Source: Octopus vulgaris
Lineage: Eukaryota
Direction of reading: 5' to 3'
Length of the DNA stretch: 64,000 nt
Assembly (NCBI GenBank): GCA_951406725.2
Contig: OX597820.1
Span: forward strand, 106,144,001-106,208,000
A program made the position numbers and the translations under genes. Shown here in pieces: positions 29 to 58,393 of this stretch. The notes under the pieces are model-generated. The model was given only the letters and a program-made list of their open reading frames with translations. It made no database searches and was not told the DNA's origin. The first letter of the stretch is position 1; every line of letters starts with the position of its first letter.

Positions 29-71
29 GACACCTGATGAAGGCTGGAGAGTATATCAGCCAAAACGTGTT
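29..71 (+). ncRNA. Degenerate minimal type I hammerhead ribozyme (Penelope-like terminal repeat remnant)
   Basis: GACAC-CTGATGA(34-40)-A-GGCTG..CAGCC stem II-AAAA (GAAA expected)-C-GTGTT. GACAC pairs with GTGTT as stem I. Stem III and the cleavage triplet appear deleted. Confidence 0.5.
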
Positions 72-6524: not shown

Positions 6525-7000
6525 ATAAGTGAAATCAAAATCGAAATCGGAATCGAAATTGAACCAATCCTATGACTGGCATCCGGCAGATGCCAGGACC
6601 CCTGGACTGGTGGTACATAAAAAGCACTATCTGAATCGTGGTCGATGCCAGCGCCGCCTCAACTGGCTTCCGTGCCGGTGGCACGTAAAATGCACCATCC
6701 AAACCGTGGCCGATGCCAGTGCCGCCTCGACTGGCTTCCATGCCGGTGGCACGTAAAATGCACCAATGCGACCATGGCCGTTGCCAGCCTCGCCTGGCAT
6801 CTGTGCAGGTGGCATGTAAAAAGCACCCACTACACTCACGGAGTGGTTGGCGTTAGGAAGGGCATCCAGCTGTAGAAACATTGCCAGATAAGACTGGAGC
6901 CTGGTGCAGCCTTCTGGCTTCCCAGACCCCGGTCGAACTGTCCAACCCATGCTAGCATGGAGAACGGACGTTAAACGATGATGATGATGATGATGATGAT
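6525..7000 (+). mobile_element. RTE LINE 3' UTR-only copy with ~4 tandem ~68-bp units and (GAT)n tail
   Basis: Matches the 3' UTR of 1804-3820 and ends CATGCTAGCATGGAGAACGGACGTTAAAC(GAT)n. Confidence 0.9.
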
Positions 7001-17772: not shown

Positions 17773-18845
17773 GGGGAAAACCACAAGTAGTTGATAGCTT
17801 CTGTTACTGAGGTGACCAAAACAGTAGCAGGGATGGATGCCCTGAGAGTTTAGCTATTAGAACAAGAATAGCCTGAGCAAAGTTCAGAGGGCTCTGCTGG
17901 TAACAAAGGGCCTCTCGCTCAGAGTAAAAGGTAGACTGTATGACGCATGTGTGCGAATAGCCATGCTACATGGCAGTGAAACATGGCAGTGAAATGTAAC
18001 TGCTGAAGACATGCAAGGAATGAAGTTAGTATATTCTGCTAGATGTGTAATGTCAGTGTGCATACACGACAGAGTGTAAACGTCCTGAGAGAAAAGTTGG
18101 ACATAAGAAGCATCAGATGTAGTGTGCAAGAGAGACAACTGCATTGGTATGGTCATGTGTTGCATATGGATGAGGACAGCTGTGTGAAAAAGTGTCACAT
18201 CTTAGTAGTAGAGGGAGCCTGTGGAAGAAGTAGCCCCAGGAAGACCTGGGATGGGGTGGTGAAGCATGACCTTTGAATGTTGGGCATCACGGAGGCAATG
18301 ACAAGCGACCGAGATCTTTGGAGATATGCTGTGCTTGAGAAGACCTGGCAAGCCAAGTGAGACTGTAACTGTGGCCTATGCCAGTGCAGCATAACCAGCC
18401 CATTTAAGAGTACCCTTCAATCATTTGGCAATAAACTGTGCTTGCAAAGACCTGTTGAATCAAGTGAAGTTATTTTCATGGCCGATGACAGTACCTCCTG
18501 ATTGACACCCATGCCAGTGGCACGTAAAATGCACCATTTGAGCATGGTCGATGCCAGTGCCAGCTGACTGGTCCTGTATCAGTGGCACATAAAAAGCACC
18601 ATTCGAGTATGGTCATTGCCAGTCCCACCTGACTGGCTCCCATGCCAGTGGCACATAAAAAACACCATTCAAGTGTGGAGTGGTTGGCATTAGGAAGGGC
18701 ATCCAGCTGTAGAAACGTTGCTAAATCAGATTGGAGCCTGATGCAGCCTTCTGTCTTGCCAGCCCTCAGTCAAACTCCAACCCATGCCAGCATGGAAAGC
18801 GAACGTTAAACGACAACGATGATGATGATGATGATGATGATGATG
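17773..18845 (+). mobile_element. 5'-truncated RTE copy nested inside the same-family element
   Basis: Abrupt jump from the post-endonuclease linker to the C-terminal VVDSFCY region, then its own 3' UTR and (GAT)n tail. The host reading frame resumes at GATGATGCAAAGAGAGAG. Confidence 0.75.
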
Positions 18846-20667: not shown

Positions 20668-20990
20668 GATGCCAGTGCTGCCTGACTGGCACCTGTACCA
20701 GTGGCACATAAAAAACAGCATTTAAGTGGGGTCGATGCCAGTGCCACCTGACTGGCACCCATGCCAGTGGCATGTAAAAAGCACCATTCAAGCATGGCCA
20801 ATACCAGTGCCACCTGACTGGTACCTGTGCCAGTGGCACATAAAATGCACAATTCAAGCATGGCTGATGCCAGTTCCGCTTGACTGGTACCTGTGCCAGT
20901 GGCATGTAAAAAGCACCATGTGAGCATGGCTGATGCCAGTGCTGCCTGACTGGCTCTTGTGCTGGTGACACATAAAAAGTACTCACTACA
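20668..20990 (+). repeat. Five tandem 66-bp units in the RTE 3' UTR
   Basis: Unit starts at 20668, 20734, 20800, 20866 and 20932. Confidence 0.95.
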
Positions 20991-28256: not shown

Positions 28257-28288
<32 letters not shown>

Positions 28289-28295
28289 TATATAA

Positions 28296-28696
28296 TATAG
28301 GATAAAATTTTTCGAAAAAAATTTTATCGATGGCCAGCATATTAAAAAATACCTTCAAAGGTTAAATATATAAACAATATATAAACAACGGCAAAAGAAA
28401 AAATTTTAATGCCAAATATGCCGAAAAAGGACAAATTGTCAATAACCATATAATTTATCAGGGTATGAGTAAGTATTTCATTTATGTCTTACGTATTTAT
28501 CGCTGATGAGGAGAAAATTCTTATGAATTAACTCTGAAATCGGCACCGATACGGTAATAACGGAATTTTTTAGAAGTTTCTGTTGGTTTACTTCATGACA
28601 CGTATTTATAGTGAGAAATTATATGGTTATTGACAATTTGTCCTTTTTCGGCATATTTGGCATTAGAAGTTTTTCTTTTGCCGTTGTTTATAAATT

Positions 28697-28706
<10 letters not shown>
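28296..28706 (+). mobile_element. (TA)n-bounded non-coding element: ~91-bp inverted repeats enclosing a hammerhead ribozyme (Penelope-like)
   Basis: Arms 28366-28456 and 28616-28706 differ at about 3 positions. Palindrome GATAAAATTTTTCGAAAAAAATTTTATC at 28301-28328. Confidence 0.75.
28497..28557 (+). ncRNA. Type I hammerhead ribozyme, intact core
   Basis: TTATCG-CTGATGA-GGAG..AATTC TTAT GAATT..CTCT-GAAA-TCGG CA CCGA-TA|CGGTAA. All three stems pair. Predicted cut after 28551 (AUA). Confidence 0.85.
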
Positions 28707-28738
<32 letters not shown>

Positions 28739-28837
28739 TATGCTATATATATATATATATTCATTCATTTAGAGATAGTAGGCCCCTTCATCTCACCATA
28801 TAAAAAAGAATTTTTATTTTAAATACACATGCTTCAT

Positions 28838-28916
28838 GAGGTACGTTTCCCGGTTCCTAAACCACTCCGTGTTTTGCTGGAATCATTCTTAAAATATAAC
28901 ACCAGTCATCAGGCTC
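28838..28916 (-). ncRNA. Type I hammerhead ribozyme with minimal palindromic stem III
   Basis: Minus strand GAGC-CTGATGA-CTGGT..ACCGG-GAAA-CG-TA|CCTC. Stem I has a C.C mismatch at the first pair. Confidence 0.65.
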
Positions 28917-29067
28917 CTATATCACTTTCTCACAATTCAATACTATAAACTATACTTTAATTTTTTTTTTTTTAAACCCACAAGTATGTGTAAAATAGGT
29001 TCGCCGGACCCTACAGTACAAGCCATAATTTAATTTATATTTAATTTAATTTATATATATATATATC

Positions 29068-30860
29068 TCAGGTGATGAAAGTTACAGAGAGAGTCATAGC
29101 CCAACTAATTAGGGAGAGAGTTAGTCCAGATGAGATTCAGTTTGGTTTTGTGTCAGGTAGAAGCACCACTGATGCTATATTTCTGGTAAGGCAGCAACAG
29201 GAGAAATACATAGCCAAAGATAAATCTTTGTACTTGGCTTTTGTTGACTTGGAGAAAGCCTTTGACAGGGTCGCCCGATCCCTTATGTGGTGGTCAATGC
29301 AGAAATTGGGGGTAGATGAGTGACAAGTAAAAACTGTAAAAGCCCTGTACAGCGATGCTGTCAGTAAGGTGAGGGTTGGCAACAAGTATAGTGAAGAATT
29401 CCGAGCAGAAGTAGGGATTCACCAAGGATCAGTCCTCAGCCTCCTCTTATTCATTATAGTCCTCCGGGCAATAGCAGAGGAATTCAAGACAGGCTGTCCC
29501 TGGGAGCTCCTCTATGCTGATGACCTTTCACTAATTGCTGAGCCACAGCCAGAACTAGAGACGAAGTTTAGGGTGTGGAGCAAGGTCTAGAATCGAAGGA
29601 CCTTAGGGTTAACCTAGCAAAAACTAAAGTCTTACTAAGTAGAAAGGCTGTCAAATCACAATCCCCTTCAGGTAGATGGCCCTGCTCAATCTGTAGAAAA
29701 GGTGTGGGTAGAAACTCCATACGATGTACCCGGTGTAAGCTATAGACTCATAAAAGGTGCAGCAATATCAAAGGAAGGTTAACCAGGAAATTAGTTTTTG
29801 TGTGTGGCAGATGCTCGGGAGCAATAAACACTGAAAATGTGCAGAGAACAACTTCTGCCACATTCCAGGGAGAAACACTAGAAGTAGTTGATAGCTTCCG
29901 TTACCTAGGTGACCAAGTCTGTAGGCGGTGTTGATGCTCTGATAGCATGGCTGCTAGAATAAGAATAGCCTTGGCAAAGTTCATGAAGCTCCTACCTCTG
30001 CTGGCAACTAAAGGCCTCTCGTTCAGAGTGAAAGGTAGACTGTATAATGCATGTGTGTGAACTACCATGCTACACGGCAGAGAAACATGGGCCATGAATG
30101 CTGAGGACATGCATAGGCTTGAAAGAAATGAAGCTAGCATGATCCGCTGGATATGTAATGTCAGTGTGCGTACACAACAGAGTGTAAGTGTCCTGAGAGA
30201 AATGTTGGGCATAAGAAGCATTAAATGTGGTGTGCAGGAGAGGTGACTGCACTGGTATGGTCATGTGTTATGTATGGATGAAGACAGCTGCATGAGAAAG
30301 TGCCACTCCCTAACTGTGGAAGGAACCTATGGAAGAGGTAGACCAAGGGAGACCTGGGATGAGGTGGTGAAGCATGACCTTCAAACATTGGGCCTCACAG
30401 AGACAATGACAGGAGACCGGGACCTTTGGAAATATGCTGTGATTGAGAAGACCTGGCAACTAAAGTGAGATCACAGCCACACATGTCTGGCCCTGTTAAG
30501 AATACCCCTGATGCATCAAGCAATATAATACACTTGAGAAGACCTGTTGAGTCAAGTAAAACCAATATCATAGCTGTGGCCAGTTCCCCCTGAAAGCACC
30601 ATCCAAACGTGGTCGATGCCAGGTATACCTGGCTAGCTCCCGCGCCAGGCCCATCTGATTGGCTCTTGTGCCGGTGGCACGTAAAAAGTATCCACTAAAC
30701 TCTTGGAGTGGTTGGCTTTAAGGAAGGCATCCAGCTGTAGAAACATTGCCAGAACAGACTGGGAGCTTGGTGCAACCGCTGGCTCTCCAGACCTCAGTCA
30801 AACAGTCCAACCCATGCTAGCTTGTAAAACAGATGTTAAATGATGTTGATGATGATGATC
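29068..30860 (+). mobile_element. RTE LINE, 5'-truncated pseudogene
   Basis: QFGFVSGRSTTDAIF, LEKAFDRV, GIHQGSVLS, LLYADDL, GRGRPRETW, 3' UTR and (GAT)n tail. Confidence 0.95.
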
Positions 30861-31126
30861 GCGATCATGATATGTTCTATAGTACATCACACCAGTGAAA
30901 CACTTCATGTTTGTCTTAATTTAATTCACCTATGTTTATATAAACTATGTAAATAGTTAATCATCATTTAGACATCTACATACAATATGTGTGCATTCAT
31001 GCATGATTGAAATTCTATATGTATATGAAAAAAAAAATCAACAAAATAGTATGTGTATAGTGAGCAAGATGTCACTCCAACAAAAATAAAAATAATTTTA
31101 ACTTGTCAACTTCTGTTACACACACA

Positions 31127-31180
<54 letters not shown>

Positions 31181-31399
31181 TATATCATTCCTTCCTGTTT
31201 ACCATTAATTTGTCATCCAGACTAAAAATATTCTCATTACCAAAATTCAGTTTTTCTACGACAGGCAAGAATATGACAATGGTATATACGTATGTTAATG
31301 CAAATGCCGTCAAAACACAAGTGAAAAATCATCCTGCGCACATGTACTTTACAAACTGTTGAAGTAAAGACATACTATATGCAGAGAATACTTTCTTTT

Positions 31400-31410
31400 T
31401 ATTTTTATTA

Positions 31411-31462
<52 letters not shown>

Positions 31463-31507
31463 CATTATTATTATTATTACTGTTATTACTGTTATTATTA
31501 TTATTAT

Positions 31508-31539
<32 letters not shown>

Positions 31540-31540
31540 T
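31400..31540. repeat. (ATT)n microsatellite
   Basis: Directly visible. Confidence 0.95.
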
Positions 31541-32664
31541 ATTTTGTATTCTTATTTCTTTATGCTTTATTTTGTTCAGTATTTATAGTACCAAAAGAAC
31601 TATATTACATTACTTTGGAATTTCTTCTTGTAGTAGAAAACAAGTTGCTGATGGAAAACTATAAATAGGTTGGATTTTTGGTTTCCATGTTTTTTTTTTT
31701 TCTTTTTCACAAGTTAATCGTTGCTGTTCTGCTGTTTACTCTGTGATGTTTTCAAGCAATGTTGATGGTTTTTCAGTCAAAGAAGTGTAAAAGTTTCAAA
31801 GTGATTATTTTATACGTCAGGAGAATATACAGCAGTGATTCATATTAGTGTCTTAGAACAGAAAATTTCTCACTTAAAACTTGCCTTAAAGAAAGTAGCC
31901 AACTTAATTCAAAATGAACATTTTTGGCATAAATTAAAATTTATCTTTTGATATTTTTATATTCACCAGCACCAGCACCAGCACCAGCACCACCATCATC
32001 ATCATATAATAACCATCTTCCATGCTGGCATGGGAGATGGTTTGACAGGATCCAACACATTGGAGAAATGTGTTGAGCTCCAAAGTATTCTTTGGCATGA
32101 TTTCTGTTGCCAACCCCTTTACAGCATGCATAGGGTGCTTTTTCTTTATGTGACAATGGCATTAGGTGTGGTTACCAGGTAACTTGCAAGATGACAACAA
32201 ACCTCTCTTGACTGAATATAGTTGTAGTAGAGAGGGAGGTGATTTCATTCCAGGTGATAAGAGGTATAAGTATCATAGTGGATGGCAGGCACAGTTGTCC
32301 TGCTATATAGGAAATACATGGTACTCTGCATTATATAATAGTGGTGGGTAGTACCCAGAAAGAGAGATAAAGATGATGAAAACCTAAAAGTTAGCTTTTA
32401 CAGTCTCTATTAAAAAATAAAATTTATTAAAATTTTTAATAAACCAAAAATTTATGCATTGGGGTCAATCTTAAAAATATTAATCTTTAAAGATGAGGAG
32501 ATGCTCATGGAAAATTGCATTATGGCTGATCCTTCCACTTCATGCCAACATATTCTGGCATCTCAGATTGCTTAGTCATCTTGGTACTATACAATATACA
32601 TGCATACATACATACATACATATAAACATACAAACATACATACATACATATAAACATACAAACA

Positions 32665-32698
<34 letters not shown>

Positions 32699-32707
32699 CA
32701 TACATAC

Positions 32708-33043
32708 GGTGGCTGCCCCCTCTTTATCGAGTATGGCCACTGCACGAAGCTTAATCAATGTTGTTACCGTGCAATGCCTGTGCAAGAAGATTTTTTTGAA
32801 AGTGAGGAAAGGCTGTGCACTGAGTCAATCCCACTCACTAAGCAACAGCAGCCATAATCCGAAAAGAAGTACAAGTCAACATCATCGGTAACCACTGAGC
32901 CGCAGGTTTTATGTTGGAGTTATCCCAGTTACCTGAGTTACCTTCTCCTAGAAGGATGCCCCAACAAAGGCTAGGAGTCCTTCACTTCCAATGGTTTAAC
33001 CGCGCGATCGGGTATTTAGTCCAATTATTTCTATGTCCCCGCG
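32708..33043 (-). mobile_element. Short non-autonomous retroelement inserted in (CATA)n, possibly a bipartite RTE derivative
   Basis: Relatively GC-rich island bounded by CATA repeats. Minus-strand CTAGCCTTTGTTGGGGCATCCTTCTAGGAGAAGGTAACTC resembles, from recall, a motif of RTE 5' regions and RTE-linked SINEs. Confidence 0.45.
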
Positions 33044-33119
33044 CATACATACATACATACATACATACATACATACATACATACATACATACATACATAC
33101 ATCATACATACATGTATAT

Positions 33120-33337
33120 TCTTCCTTTATTCTTTTACTTGTTTCAGTCATTAGACTGGGGAACTACCTTGAAGAATTTTTAGTTAAACAACTCAACCCT
33201 AGTACTCATTTTTTTAATGCCTGGTATTTATTCTATCAGTCTCTTTTGCTGAAGTTAGAGAGATACAACAAACCAACACTGGTTGTAAAGTGGTGATGGG
33301 GAACAAACAGAGATACAAAGACACAGACACAGACACA

Positions 33338-33373
<36 letters not shown>

Positions 33374-33470
33374 ATGGGCTTCTTTCAGCTTCCATCTACC
33401 AAATCCACACACAAGGCTTTAGTTAGCTTGAGGCTATAGTGGAAAACATTTGCCCAAGGTGTCATGCAGT
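33120..33470 (-). mobile_element. SINE family B
   Basis: Family tail and core in reverse orientation. Confidence 0.85.
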
Positions 33471-33785
33471 TTATATATTTTATTTTGGTTAAAACTGTGC
33501 ACTTGCAGGGGAAACTCAGAGTAGCAACACATTGACTTGATCAAAATAAAATGCATTGTCAATTCCTACTGTGGTATTGAATACACATTTTTCCAACTTT
33601 AACATTAAACATATACATGTGTGAGTGTGTGTGTGTGTGTGTGTGTTTGTGTGAATGTGAGTGTAAATATATATGCACATGGAATCGTTTATGTGCAATA
33701 GTCTTAGAAATGGAGTGGTGCCAAAACAATTCTTACTAATAATAAAATTGTGCTACATTCATTCTTTGTCTTCTTGTATTACATA

Positions 33786-34070
33786 CTAGCACTATGACCC
33801 AGCAGCGCCAGGTCATAGTGCTAGTACATGCATATACATCTGTGTGCGTGCGCACATACATGCGAGTACTGTCCAAATCTCCGACCAATCACATACAGCT
33901 AGCTGGCATTCAATTGGTGTATCAAGTTTCGGGAATTTTGATTAGGTTTGGGATAGAAAATTCACAAAAAAGTCACTTCTATTGATTTTTTAATGGCTTT
34001 GCGGGGTGACTGGGGAAATGTAAAGATGTGTACGACCACCCTTGGGATGGCTTTGAATAACCATAGAATT
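33786..34070 (-). mobile_element. Helitron-like 3' end with a long terminal hairpin
   Basis: Perfect 16-bp inverted repeat TACTAGCACTATGACC / GGTCATAGTGCTAGTA (33784-33826), ending CTAG|T on the minus strand. Confidence 0.5.
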
Positions 34071-34545
34071 TACTACTCCTTCAGGATCTACACTATGACT
34101 GATCATTCTATTTTCTCATTCTTCCTTCAAACTAAATATGAAGAGCCATGCTGATCGTCTACAAAAAGCTATGCTGACTACACCCTCACAGTTTAACCCC
34201 CTTGTAACTTAATATTAATTTGAAACTGCCACCTCCTCCCAGGTTCATATACCTATGAGAAGCATGGTGACCTCAATAGTGTAGGTGGCACATGCTGTAA
34301 AGTGATTGGTGTTAGGAAGAGCATCTGGCCATAGAAACTGTGCCAAAGCATGGACTCATCAAATCTTGTCAAATTGTCCAGCCTGTGCCAACATGGAACA
34401 GGAACATTAAATAATGATGATGATGATGATGATGATGATGTTGTATATCTGTTTCCTCATATGCATCACTCAGTACTTTTGTACACAATACACATTTATG
34501 TGCCTTCACTCTACTGCTTCTGTAATAGCTTGAAGCCTGTGTCTA

Positions 34546-34594
<49 letters not shown>

Positions 34595-34704
34595 GCTACT
34601 ACTGCTGCTGCTGTGGCTCCACCACCACCACTACAACTATATATTAAATACACATCATTTATACTTACATGTTTGTGTACGTATACACACACACACACAC
34701 ACAC

Positions 34705-35058
34705 AAATAACAAAAGACGGATCATGGTTCACTATTGTTGTTTCAGATGTGTTTTTTTTCTTTTCTGATGAATAGAAGTATTGCCTCATGTGAAAAAATC
34801 GTTTTCATCAGGTGTATACATGTAAGAATTAAATATTTTGAACATCTCAACACCAAAGCAATATCGACCATGGATTTTTGATCGGCAGAGTTGAAAATAG
34901 TACTTTTGCTTTGGAATTGCAATGTTCCAAATGCGTAATTCTTACATGTATTCACCTGATGAAAATGGTTTTAACACATGATGTAATAGTTCTATTCATC
35001 AATAAAAGACAAGTCTTAGAAAAGCTGTTGTGAACCACAATCGATCTGTTGTTATTTG
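34705..35058. repeat. Foldback or MITE-like element with long imperfect inverted arms
   Basis: For example TGATGAATAGAA..TTTTCATCAGGTGTATACATGTAAGAATTA versus TAATTCTTACATGTATTCACCTGATGAAAA..TTCTATTCATCA. Confidence 0.75.
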
Positions 35059-35331
35059 TTTATCTTTCACTTTACTTGGAACCTGCAATTCACATGGATC
35101 TGGAGTCGATTGCAGGCAGTACAATTGGTGCAGTGTTTGTACTCCTGTGCAACCTTGACACTCGTTGCATATTTAGTCAACCATTTGTGATTGTACATAC
35201 AACCAGAGTATAGATCTGTGTTCACTTGAGTAAGTACATATTTGTTCTTCAAATATTGTTTGTATACAATAGCAATTTCACTGACTCCAACTTTAAAGAC
35301 TTGGTTCACTTGAATGTATGTGTGTGTGTGC

Positions 35332-35332
<1 letters not shown>

Positions 35333-35401
<69 letters not shown>

Positions 35402-35452
35402 GGATAGATAGACAGTTGTAAGCATAAATGATGCATGTTTATATTTATATGT

Positions 35453-35518
<66 letters not shown>
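35333..35518. repeat. (GATA)n and (TAG)n microsatellites
   Basis: Directly visible. Confidence 0.95.
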
Positions 35519-35519
<1 letters not shown>

Positions 35520-36696
35520 GACATAGATTCAAGCATATGAACATACATACATACATTTGCATTCATACCAGTAACCATTGCTACATTGAGTTATGTTAGT
35601 AAATGTCTAAGCAACATTCTGGAGGAGCAAAGAGTTTCTTCAAGGGAAGAGAGAGACCATCTAAAATGAATTTTACAGATACAATCAGTAAGTGGTACAG
35701 TAAAAATATGAAAGACTTTCCTAAAGTTTCATATATCCAAACTCCTATGATGCAGCATTTTTTTGTCATTGTTAAAAACCAACTTCTTCCTTCCAGAAAG
35801 AATATTAATAAATAAAAAGAAGAAAAGACATACATATGTAGGTACACACACACAAACACACACACAAAAAAAAACATGAGACTGTATAGAGACTATTTCC
35901 CTAAATATATAGGTACACAGGTACTAGAAACTACTCCAGACACACCTTCACAGCAGCTTACTCTACGTTAGCAGAAGTCAACTTTGAAGTCAGAGCTGTT
36001 CACCACATTGCTAAGCCTATCAAAATCCATGCCTGGCTCTTCTATGTTTCTGAAACAATCCCACAGTTGCTGACTTCCTAAGCTGTCAACAGATTTTCTT
36101 CTGAATTGTCTCTGAACATAAATAAGTAAAGCATCAAAGAACAAACTGGATTTAACTGGCTGGAACCAGTAAAAGAATAAAAAGAATCATACATCAACCC
36201 ACACACATATCTACATAACTATTTTTAAGCAAGTGTTTCTTAGCTTGGATGATGGTGGTGGAGAGATATTATTAGTGTAACACCATCTTATATTGTTCAA
36301 CTAAAGTTCAGAAACAACATTTTGTCTTGTTTGTTTTACAGCTGTGTTTCCTGTGTTAGCGCAGGTTACAGGAATATGTTTTTGAGGCATTTTTTTTACA
36401 GCCAGTTGCTCTTCCTGGCACTAATTCATATTCTGTTTTTCAAGTAAGGGTTCATTTATTCTACACAGCTTTTAAGATATTGAGAGATCAGAAAATTTAT
36501 TGATAGGGAAAAACCAATAAGAACACAATGCCACTTGGACATCGTGATTTTCATATTTGTGAGCATAGATGAAAACAAACACATGGACATGTATGGGCAC
36601 ACACATAACATATATAAGCATGCATATACATATGCAAACAATATGTGTGTGTACATACACACACATGCAGGTGCATACACACAAATATATATATTC

Positions 36697-36922
36697 TGCG
36701 AGCTGGCAGAAACGTTAGCATGCCGGGTGAAATGCTTAGCAGTATTTCGTCTGCTGTTATGTTCTGAGTTCAAATTCTGCCGAGGTCGACTTTGCCTTTC
36801 ATCCTTTCAGGGTCGATAAATTAAGTACCAGTTTCGCACTGAGGTCGATGTAATCGACTTAATCCGTTTGTCTGTCCTTGTTTGTCCCCTCTATGTTTAG
36901 CCCCTTGTGGGCAGTAAAGAAA
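36697..36922 (+). mobile_element. SINE family A, CpG-rich (young) copy
   Basis: GCGAGCTGGCAGAAACGTTAGC..GAGTTCAAATTCTGCCGAGGTCGACTTTGCCTTTCATCCTTTC. Confidence 0.92.
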
Positions 36923-37087
36923 TATATATATATATACAAAATTAGAAAATGGAGAAATATATCTAAATCAATCATCAACCATCTGATAATACCCAATCAA
37001 TACTTTATTAAACCATTACACAATAGCAATGATATTATACATTAATATAGTACAAATATAACAAGACATAGAAATAGAAATAGAAAT

Positions 37088-37224
37088 ACTTTACATTGTA
37101 GCTGACAGCTGTTTTGGCCGTGAAGACAGGTATGTCCCATTTAACCTATTAGCCATATAAAGCAGGTATAAATGAGACATTAACAAGAATATCTCACGGC
37201 CTCTTCAGAGAATTTAATGCAAGT
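37088..37224 (-). ncRNA. Type I hammerhead ribozyme with 86-nt stem II and one core mutation
   Basis: Minus strand CT-CTGAAGA-GGCCGTGA..TCACGGCC-AAAA (GAAA expected)-CAGCTG-TC|AG. Distal stem I TGCATT/AATGTA. Internal 12-bp helix ATGTCTCATTTA/TAAATGGGACAT. Confidence 0.75.
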
Positions 37225-37536
37225 GTGAAAAAAATTTACATATAAATATAAATATGTGTGCATACACACTCATATTCTTACATCTATATATATATATACA
37301 CAATAATACAATATAAACAATATAGATCAATATACATCAACAAACACAATAATGTTCCATATTGAACTCCACAGTTCCATAACCAACATCAAGGAACCAC
37401 AACATGTACACTCACACTCAAAGCAGGCATATATATTGAACAGTCCAATACATTAAAATGTGTCATTACACAAAAAGTCAATAAAATTAATATTAATATT
37501 AATATTAATATATATATATATATAATATTAATATTA

Positions 37537-37567
<31 letters not shown>

Positions 37568-37782
37568 AAAAGAGAGAGAGAGCAATAAGAAAATGGAAGG
37601 GATCAATAGGTGGTACTCATCAACTTTTAGACATTATATTATGTCAATTTATTTATTTACTAAAAGGACAATTATGACAATATACATACATGTATAACAC
37701 ATATTTTACATATATTATATATAAAATATAAAAATATTAGTAATTATTAAAATATATATCATATAGCAATAGAAATTGGGAT

Positions 37783-37912
37783 AATATCTTACAGCTGTTT
37801 CAGCCAAGAAGCAAAAATGCCTCATTCTACTTTTATCCTTTCAGTAGACTGAAGTAATTAGTAGATGAAATTGAGGTACTTGGGTGTTTCTCTAGGCTTC
37901 GTCAGAGATTTT
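37783..37912 (-). ncRNA. Type I hammerhead ribozyme with 97-nt stem II, intact core
   Basis: Minus strand ATCT-CTGACGA-AGCC..GGCT-GAAA-CAGCTG-TA|AGAT. Nested helices CCTCA/TGAGG, TCTACT/AGTAGA, TTCAG/CTGAA. Predicted cut between 37790 and 37789. Confidence 0.85.
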
Positions 37913-38027
37913 AGAGAGTACATAAGGTTAAGTTATAAATATAAATACATGCACATATACATGCTTTTACAAATACATACATATACATAAATATACATAA
38001 ATACATATACCTACACTTAAATGTTTG

Positions 38028-38122
38028 TTGGACAGTTGTGATGAAAACTAAATTAAAATTGTTCTAGTTTTCATCACAACTATCCAATGAACAGAACTGT
38101 AAAACTCTGAGTAACAGTTCTG
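38028..38122. repeat. Two adjacent hairpins (23-bp and 9-bp arms)
   Basis: TTGGACAGTTGTGATGAAAACTA / TAGTTTTCATCACAACTATCCAA and CAGAACTGT / ACAGTTCTG. Confidence 0.8.
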
Positions 38123-53612: not shown

Positions 53613-53761
53613 AAATTTTTTGGTATTATTCTCCATTGCACATGTTTCATTTGCTAGTAGGAATTACAAAGATTTACATGTTAGATAGACATGTGAATCT
53701 TTGTAATTCCTGTTAGAAAATGAAACACATGTAATGGTGAATAAATAATACCAAAAAATTT
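53613..53761. repeat. Foldback with ~70-bp arms and a 7-nt loop, each arm resembling a hammerhead 3' half
   Basis: Arms meet at ACATGT-TAGATAG-ACATGT and read GAAACACATGTA (+) and GAAACATGTGCA (-). Confidence 0.8.
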
Positions 53762-57609: not shown

Positions 57610-58393
57610 TTGTCCTGTATTCCATTTTTTCTCTTGTTGTTTGTGTATTTAATTCATTTGTTTTCGTATTTCATGTTGTTTACTGTTGGTTACGTCCTGT
57701 ACCCATATATGCATGGATATATATATATATATTATTTATATTATTATTTAATTAAACACCACGCATCAATTTCCAATTAAGTTAATCTTAATCTTTTTGA
57801 TGTGACTCTACTCCTTACTGTTTTCTCCCCTATCCTTCTCTGATTCCCTTTTTCTCCCCTTCACTGTTTTCTATCTATCTCTCACTCTCCCCCTCTTTCT
57901 CATTTTCTCTCTCTTGCTGATCACATGTGACCATTGTCCATCTTTCTTTTCCTCACATGACCATCTTTCTTTTCCTTTGTGGACATCCTAAGGACTGAAC
58001 GTCTTCTATCTCTCTTCTATCTTTTCTCCTTCCAAAGAAGATATTTCTCTCAGTGTTCACTATTTCCCCCTCATTCTGGTCTAACGACCCTCTATGTTCG
58101 TTTTCATTTGGTTTCCTTGTACGTCTCCACTGTCGTGTTTTTGTTCCCAACTTTGACACTCCATAAATCCAAAATTTTATTTTGGTATTTATGGGAGCAG
58201 CTGTCTTTGAAGACTCATATTATCATTGATTGCTCGACATGAGGAGTAGAAAGACATCCAACAACTGATGAAGATTCGTTGTGTATTACTTGTCCTATTT
58301 TCCATTTTATTCTCTCACTGTTTGCGTATTTAACTCATTTGTTTTTGTATTTCATGTTGTTTACTGTTGGTGATGTCCTGTACCCATATATGC

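Follow-up and report, generated by a model that had tools for sequence, protein, structure and literature searches.

Penelope-like elements (PLEs) of the Hydra clade, as set out in the sections of Craig et al. (2021, PMC8557442) on that clade, have only one open reading frame (ORF), in which the reverse transcriptase (RT) precedes a GIY-YIG endonuclease, and they combine canonical hammerhead ribozymes with (TA)n targets. Their diagnostic features (section 11 of that paper) are DKT, a CxCX5C linker, the C-terminal endonuclease, and late CxxC and CxH motifs. An octopus family, Hydra-1_Obim of Octopus bimaculoides (2,507 bp), belongs to the clade. Naiad PLEs, which occur in octopus genomes and also target (TA)n, are described there with an N-terminal endonuclease and are reported without canonical hammerheads. 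A stretch of 64,000 nucleotides from Octopus vulgaris (contig OX597820.1, positions 106,144,001 to 106,208,000), here called the window, contains four hammerhead motifs in two close pairs, labelled A to D (Table 1). Very probably each is a type I hammerhead at the 3′ end of its own, separate high-copy PLE family. B, C and D would be 5′-truncated RT and GIY-YIG elements with Hydra-clade motifs, and A a non-coding tandem unit of ∼472 nucleotides (nt) that was likely copied in trans.

The genome (2.8 Gb in 227 contigs) is rich in microsatellites, and each motif retrieves its own family from it. Initial searches gave 3323 candidates for A, 675 for B, 1476 for C and 927 for D; these are not copy numbers, and 40 were scored per search. 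Insertion anatomy was read from 47 distinct copies of A (60 loci, two without an anchor), 24 of B (25 loci), 22 of C (25) and 29 of D (30), window copies included. The main 3′ end is fixed in all four families, ∼80–210 nt past the predicted cut. A (TA) run of at least five units directly follows the ends without a tail in 21 of 26 cases for A, 11 of 15 for B and 18 of 19 for C, the background at randomly chosen positions being 5% in the loci and 1% in the window; for D the count is 0/19 because a (CT)n run intervenes. A family-specific tail is present at 14/40 ends in A, 8/23 in B, 3/22 in C and 5/24 in D. An element's own 3′ end lies inverted upstream in 22/47, 3/24, 1/22 and 3/29 copies, respectively. 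A fixed 3′ end, 5′ truncation, tails and inverted pieces constitute PLE insertion anatomy as Craig et al. (2021) describe it, where the tail is the stretch between two internal RT start sites (see also the account of start sites in Frangieh et al., 2024, PMC11167929). The PLE marks, namely partial tandems of the pseudo-long terminal repeat (pLTR), inverted 5′ copies and an optional 3′ tail, are all found here. The preliminary description of this DNA had proposed several distinct PLE hammerhead families lying in (TA)n, and both proposals are borne out, with family D ends reaching (TA)n only beyond a (CT)n run.

Families B, C and D lead upstream into coding elements. Extension of long C copies reached an ORF with RT and GIY-YIG domains, and in a single locus (L152) this ORF is accompanied by an AT-rich 3′ untranslated region (UTR) and by a C end that shares 93% identity with the window copy. 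When the ORF was used in a protein search and 150 of 17,858 candidates were scored, many scores were identical, which points to a young sister subfamily of C. One of its members, L147, is complete: a pLTR, a tail, a 947-amino-acid ORF, a 2.1-kb 3′ UTR, a second pLTR, another tail and an inverted copy. Its hammerheads lie 5,579 nt apart and its pLTRs are 98% identical. In family B, an upstream walk found ORF remnants in nine of 20 loci; the ORF C-terminus, the middle and the B end follow in order on one strand in all four loci followed, which were picked for their ORF matches, and long B copies have the ORF ∼1 kb upstream of the hammerhead. For D, two overlap walks reached ORF remnants. These lie upstream of the D 5′ segment on the same strand in three of four loci, the fourth having them in an inverted piece; L247 alone also holds the D hammerhead region, on the same strand and ∼4 kb further on, after a gap. 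The ORF is degenerate upstream of B, C and D and intact in L147 and L148. The linkage to RT and GIY-YIG ORFs that had been proposed as a check is thus present for B and C on one strand of single loci, and for D by overlap walk. A candidate ORF beside L091 was rejected, being part of a different PLE family that has a hammerhead of its own.

The L147/L148 subfamily comprises dozens of equal-scoring copies, many with open frames of 444 and 486 amino acids; the recurrence of these lengths suggests common break points.

The coding bodies bear on an alternative by which all four motifs would be short retrozymes, non-autonomous and spreading in the form of small circular RNAs. It draws on family A, which fits in outline with its closed 472-nt unit, circularly permuted junctions and one dimer; on the window, which has no PLE ORF match, as had been stated and as was confirmed for the four PLE-type queries tried; and on L193, a derivative of B with an internal deletion, in which the ORF start and the endonuclease region are retained and the RT core (amino acids ∼263–807 of the query) is missing. 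However, B, C and D reach kilobases upstream into RT and GIY-YIG ORFs and show graded 5′ truncation, and the single loci with ORF and hammerhead end on one strand refute the retrozyme reading for B and C. As an account of all four families it is improbable. The closed islands of 300–450 bp that had been described are, for B, C and D, the 5′-truncated ends of elements several kb long. The further suggestion that all the families are non-autonomous applies to A only, B and C being joined to coding ORFs and D linked to one.

Family A resembles the metazoan non-LTR retrozymes described by Cervera and de la Pena (2020, PMC7229834) and Li et al. (2026, bioRxiv 10.64898/2026.07.22.740005), which, in the portions of those reports on unit structure, are likewise small, non-coding, AT-rich head-to-tail hammerhead units with PLE signatures. 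The A unit has one type I hammerhead and circularly permuted junctions, and a full dimer with 472-nt spacing is found at one locus. Of 19 leader starts, 18 come directly after the element's own tail. Among 49 tail ends, 31 are at (TA)n, 17 at the unit start and one at another microsatellite, and none is in unrelated element sequence. Unlike the retrozymes of those reports, A occurs mostly as dispersed monomers and as partial tandems with inverted 5′ pieces; B, C and D differ from non-LTR retrozymes in their protein-coding body. No ORF attached to A was detected by tblastn in 30 loci, and outside its own loci the family matched A-like copies only. A Hydra-type RT piece at L229, considered as the parent of A, belongs to a separate neighbouring element. 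No RNA record containing family A was found; contigs from three runs conjectured to be RNA, and from one further run, cover the unit, but strand, ends and circles are not resolvable in them. These properties fit a non-LTR retrozyme or a non-autonomous PLE derivative, likely copied in trans by a Hydra-type PLE enzyme; a Naiad protein may also mobilise A.

The ribozymes themselves were assessed with a type I descriptor comprising the CUGANGA, GAAA and NUH core and stems I–III, with stem I open and a stem III loop optional. Under strict settings the window has two matches, A and D. In 100 block dinucleotide shuffles of the window, one loose match was found in 2/100 and a match with palindromic stem III in 0/100, so that the window matches exceed the shuffled control that had been called for. 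A cmscan of the window against Rfam returned 99 matches at E≤5, made up of microsatellite-driven miRNA models, with the hammerhead family absent among them; the hammerhead calls consequently rest on the descriptor and on family evidence. The fold of the window copy of C is as had been described (z −4.4), but its sequence is CCAAAA, against CCGAAA in the majority of the family, so that G12 is lost. For B, the register first reported (28838–28916, minus strand) is rejected; its GAAA sits inside the stem II domain and the family alignment uses a later one. The family B ribozyme reads CUGAUGA-U, a 70-nt stem II domain, U-GAAA, CACGUG, UA and GCC (20 descriptor matches among B copies), with a U-U pair at the base of stem II that matches many of the Hydra hammerheads listed by Craig et al. 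(2021). The window copy of B has a deletion of ∼23 nt that includes the 3′ strand of stem I, plus a stem II mismatch, and folds like shuffled sequence (z 0.08). A complete core is present in window copies A and D, in family-typical copies of A, B and D, and in the C majority sequence; it is absent from window copies B and C. Four hammerhead folds had been reported, and of these A and D stand, C having AAAA for GAAA and B being misregistered and broken. Selection on RNA structure, also proposed, is visible between families, but single genomic copies decay, as two of the four in the window have done. The hammerheads are likely to be self-cutting.

Hammerheads of this kind are very abundant in the genome, as had been predicted. 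Forty 10-kb stretches taken at fixed positions (400 kb) contain eight descriptor-intact hammerheads, all of different sequence, whereas 20 shuffles gave three in total (0.15 each). The density of ∼20 per Mb, extrapolated from these 400 kb, gives roughly 56,000 genome-wide (∼24,000–110,000, Poisson limits). In 1.04 Mb of family loci there are 90 distinct descriptor matches in 21 clusters, against 0 in 0.97 Mb of shuffled sequence. Stem III palindromes among the clusters include CAGCUG, CACGUG, CAAUUG, CUCGAG, CGAUCG, CGUACG, CAUAUG and CGCGCG. Stem III is without a loop in 20 of 21 cluster representatives, although the descriptor permits one; it also demands pairing, so this pattern arises partly by construction. 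PLE hammerheads with a palindromic helix III are likewise spread over many families per genome, with predicted dimeric activity, in the part of Cervera and de la Pena (2014, PMC4209133) that treats them. The stem II domains of B, C and D are longer than in those hammerheads, and at 70–97 nt they differ from the short hairpins of the listed Hydra motifs (Craig et al., 2021).

Such numbers also weaken the idea that the host retains the four ribozymes at this locus for transcript processing. In its favour, two copies are descriptor-intact and the arrangement is in close pairs, but two of the four are broken, intact cores are usual among the best-scoring copies of all four families (A 31/47, B 16/24, C 15/22, D 20/29), and the density in the window (two in 64 kb) is near that of the fixed-position sample and only slightly above average. 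Host retention is accordingly very improbable.

Further hammerhead-like sequences were observed. Three weaker relatives had been listed in the window. The first, 29–71 (plus strand, within a repeat at ∼1–160), comes from an abundant minimal-hammerhead repeat and is damaged, with AAAA for GAAA and a 2-nt loss; this repeat has matches in four of the 40 fixed-position stretches, often with an inverted partner. The second, listed at 58198–58267, lies in a repeat at 58198–58290 (plus strand) that has its GAAA-type strand before CUGAUGA, in reversed order, and the window copy reads GACA. The third, 53613–53761, is a long near-perfect fold-back with only the GAAA half (GAAA-CACAUG-UA); CUGANGA was not found in the stretch inspected there. 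It has relatives at L238 and L185 and is possibly a severely truncated inverted PLE insertion. Additional hammerhead families are present at L112, L115 and L229. Within 10 kb L112 has four hammerhead matches; two lie 535 nt from each other and are identical in the parts compared. At L115 a hammerhead lies ∼200 nt downstream of another Hydra-type endonuclease remnant.

The 947-amino-acid ORF displays DKT, RWR, YRDD, the linker CNCRNKNKC (CxCX5C), a C-terminal GIY-YIG, and late CxxC and CxH; DKG and CX2-5CxxC are absent. The only CxxC is at 907, after YIG, with none inside GIY-YIG, so the CCHH motif is absent from the endonuclease. The CxCX5C linker region is also present in the remnants of B and D. 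In all, 75 homologues were found, ∼31–45% identical; many carry PF26215, and aligned homologues have RWR, RWK or RWM where Hydra has RWK. Two Asn-rich insertions in the ORF are missing from most of five aligned homologues. By these motifs B, C and D match Hydra-type PLEs. The accounts of Hydra-1_Obim and its clade in Craig et al. (2021) share with them the single ORF with RT then GIY-YIG, DKT, CxCX5C, CxxC and CxH around the late E/N, the canonical 3′ hammerhead and the (TA)n targets. The ORF here is 947 amino acids with its two Asn-rich insertions versus 709 in Hydra-1_Obim, the unit is 5.6 kb with a 2.1-kb 3′ UTR versus 2.5 kb, and the tails are ∼80–170 nt (by eye) versus 30–40 nt in Hydra. 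The Naiad clade, to which the preliminary description had pointed, is scarcely credible: Naiads do target (TA)n and occur in octopus genomes, but the C-terminal endonuclease, the CxCX5C linker, DKT and the canonical hammerheads are contrary to Naiad, and for C the reading is refuted by the order of domains in L147, which the B and D remnants share.

A biochemical parallel comes from PAc, a Poseidon element in the green anole (Frangieh et al., 2024), and the experiments reported there demonstrate internal RT start, a tail and cleavage of AT-rich DNA in vitro. PAc likewise has two 3′ ends that are downstream of the cut and parted by the tail, and AT-rich targets. In PAc the ORF start overlaps both the hammerhead and the sites at which RT starts, whereas the L147 tail ends within the 5′ UTR, well before the ATG. 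A scheme for the octopus elements may take nicking of AT-rich DNA, internal RT start and dimeric or protein-assisted cleavage from the relevant parts of that study and of Cervera and de la Pena (2014). The PLE endonuclease would likely nick (TA)n DNA. RT would prime at the nick and start inside the RNA, ∼80–210 nt downstream of the predicted cut, or at the tail end; it would mostly stop early or fold back, and the outcome would be inverted 5′ pieces and short stubs that contain a hammerhead. Read-through or tandem transcripts would be trimmed by the ribozyme, which would probably act as a dimer formed through palindromic stem III. The pairs A+B and C+D would have arisen when the (TA)n at the older B and D 3′ ends later received A and the young C. 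Identity to relatives is ∼83% for B and ∼92% for D, and for C, a young copy, 97–98% to its best relatives. The genomic stubs are probably passengers.

Several points weigh against this interpretation. Families, 3′ ends, targets and ORF linkage are defined by sequence comparison; cleavage, transcription and the course of insertion are predicted. Hammerhead cleavage was dispensable for insertion in vitro in the Poseidon experiments (Frangieh et al., 2024). The predicted active fold of hammerhead A (−10.1 kcal/mol) lies 9 kcal/mol above the minimum-energy fold (−19.2 kcal/mol). A parent or helper of A was not found in the 30 loci tested, its full dimer is seen at one locus only, and other TA-targeting PLE clades could mobilise it. 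D is joined to its ORF by way of overlapping copies that leave a gap, a weaker link than for B and C. Clade placement depends on motifs and on likeness, by eye, to the published alignment; the element is roughly double the length that is usual in Hydra (<3 kb), and it reads RWR rather than RWK. Pfam assigns 0 families to the 947-amino-acid ORF, though many homologues carry PF26215, and three ORFs or ORF pieces gave nothing above cut-off.

The (CT)n run of family D presents a separate question. The D sequence in tail copies continues CTCT-ATAAAT; tail copies keep only CTCT. At 32 non-tail ends of copies that keep the hammerhead 3′ half, the CT units before (TA)n number 6–30 in 27 and 0–2 in five, with none at 3–5. 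In 22 newly fetched D loci a CT run was read by us at 14 of 21 non-tail ends. The background at ends of TA runs is 20/1,362 and 8/548 (∼1.5%), and no CT runs occur at the ends of A, B or C. Later growth of a CT imperfection at the array edge is marginally probable; replication slippage at a CT/AT boundary is a published route to compound microsatellites (PMC2644718, in its treatment of compound repeats). A doubtful but possible alternative is that the D RT copies the start-site CUCU repeatedly, telomerase-style, and writes new (CT)n between element and (TA)n. In favour of RT slippage, CT length and divergence are uncorrelated (rho 0.16, p 0.37, n 32), although the age range of the D copies tested is narrow. 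Target preference is unlikely: a CT run lies near the D 5′ boundary in one of 30 rows, the boundaries being approximate, and in 0/11 plain truncated new copies, and this rarity at 5′ flanks argues against targeting of existing (CT)n(TA)n. If D CT runs were RT-written, they would represent repeat addition by telomerase's sister group; slippage of this kind over UA would likewise extend the (TA)n at other families' ends, and the elements would then be makers of microsatellites in a genome already rich in them. No report of PLE template slippage was found in the literature within scope, which left out most subscription papers.

Table 1. Hammerheads and insertion pieces in the window, and intact ORFs at two other loci
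Feature	Position	Strand	Remarks
(TA)n array, outer end of family A insertion	28257..28299	.	Sequence
Family A inverted 5′ piece, reverse complement of element 3′ end and tail	28292..28460	−	Opposite-strand copy matches (query 1–165)
Family A sense piece, 5′-truncated part of ∼472-nt head-to-tail unit	28461..28699	+	Ends at main 3′ end
Hammerhead A, type I	28497–28557	+	Descriptor-intact; stem I 6 bp; predicted cut after 28551
(TA)n array common to A and B 3′ ends, tail to tail	28700..28763	.	
Family B copy, 5′-truncated 3′ end of Hydra-type PLE	28764..29051	−	
Broken hammerhead B	28824..28917	−	CUGAUGA 28912–28906; GAAG for GAAA 28835–28832
Family C copy, 5′-truncated 3′ end (pLTR) of Hydra-type PLE	36937..37508	−	3′ end abuts (TA)n
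Hammerhead C	37088–37224	−	G12 to A at 37115; stem II domain 86 nt; stem III palindrome CAGCUG
(CT)n then (TA)n run, D 3′ end	37509..37578	−	C starts directly beyond
Family D copy, 5′-truncated PLE 3′ end	37579..38024	−	Overlap-walk link to Hydra-type ORF remnants
Hammerhead D, type I	37786–37909	−	Descriptor-intact; predicted cut between 37790 and 37789; stem II domain 97 nt; stem III palindrome CAGCUG
Intact Hydra-type ORF, L147	5274–8114	−	Two long Asn-rich insertions
Intact Hydra-type ORF, L148	1914–4778	+	Two long Asn-rich insertions

The window copy of A is an inverted-plus-sense insertion. Beside family B, 29070–29400 looks like a degenerate RT fragment of the RTE type of long interspersed element. 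At 38022–38095 a hairpin of ∼70 nt sits right on the 5′ boundary of the D copy, and a tandem unit of 65–68 nt is arrayed at 6609–6795, 18477–18678 and 20668–20979.

No report of these octopus families was found in the literature within the same scope. An octopus repeat annotation (PMC13282606) counts Penelope-like families, and the word hammerhead has 0 occurrences in its main text. The elements are mostly of known kinds in a new genome, Hydra-type PLE hammerheads and one retrozyme-like unit, and the families themselves are new. Through them, tens of thousands of octopus hammerheads are attributed to PLEs of many families, and Hydra-type ORFs become available that are intact and apparently young, with pLTR-tail boundaries that are complete. 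They provide a system for testing the role of the PLE hammerhead and (TA)n targeting, with family A as a candidate non-autonomous passenger.

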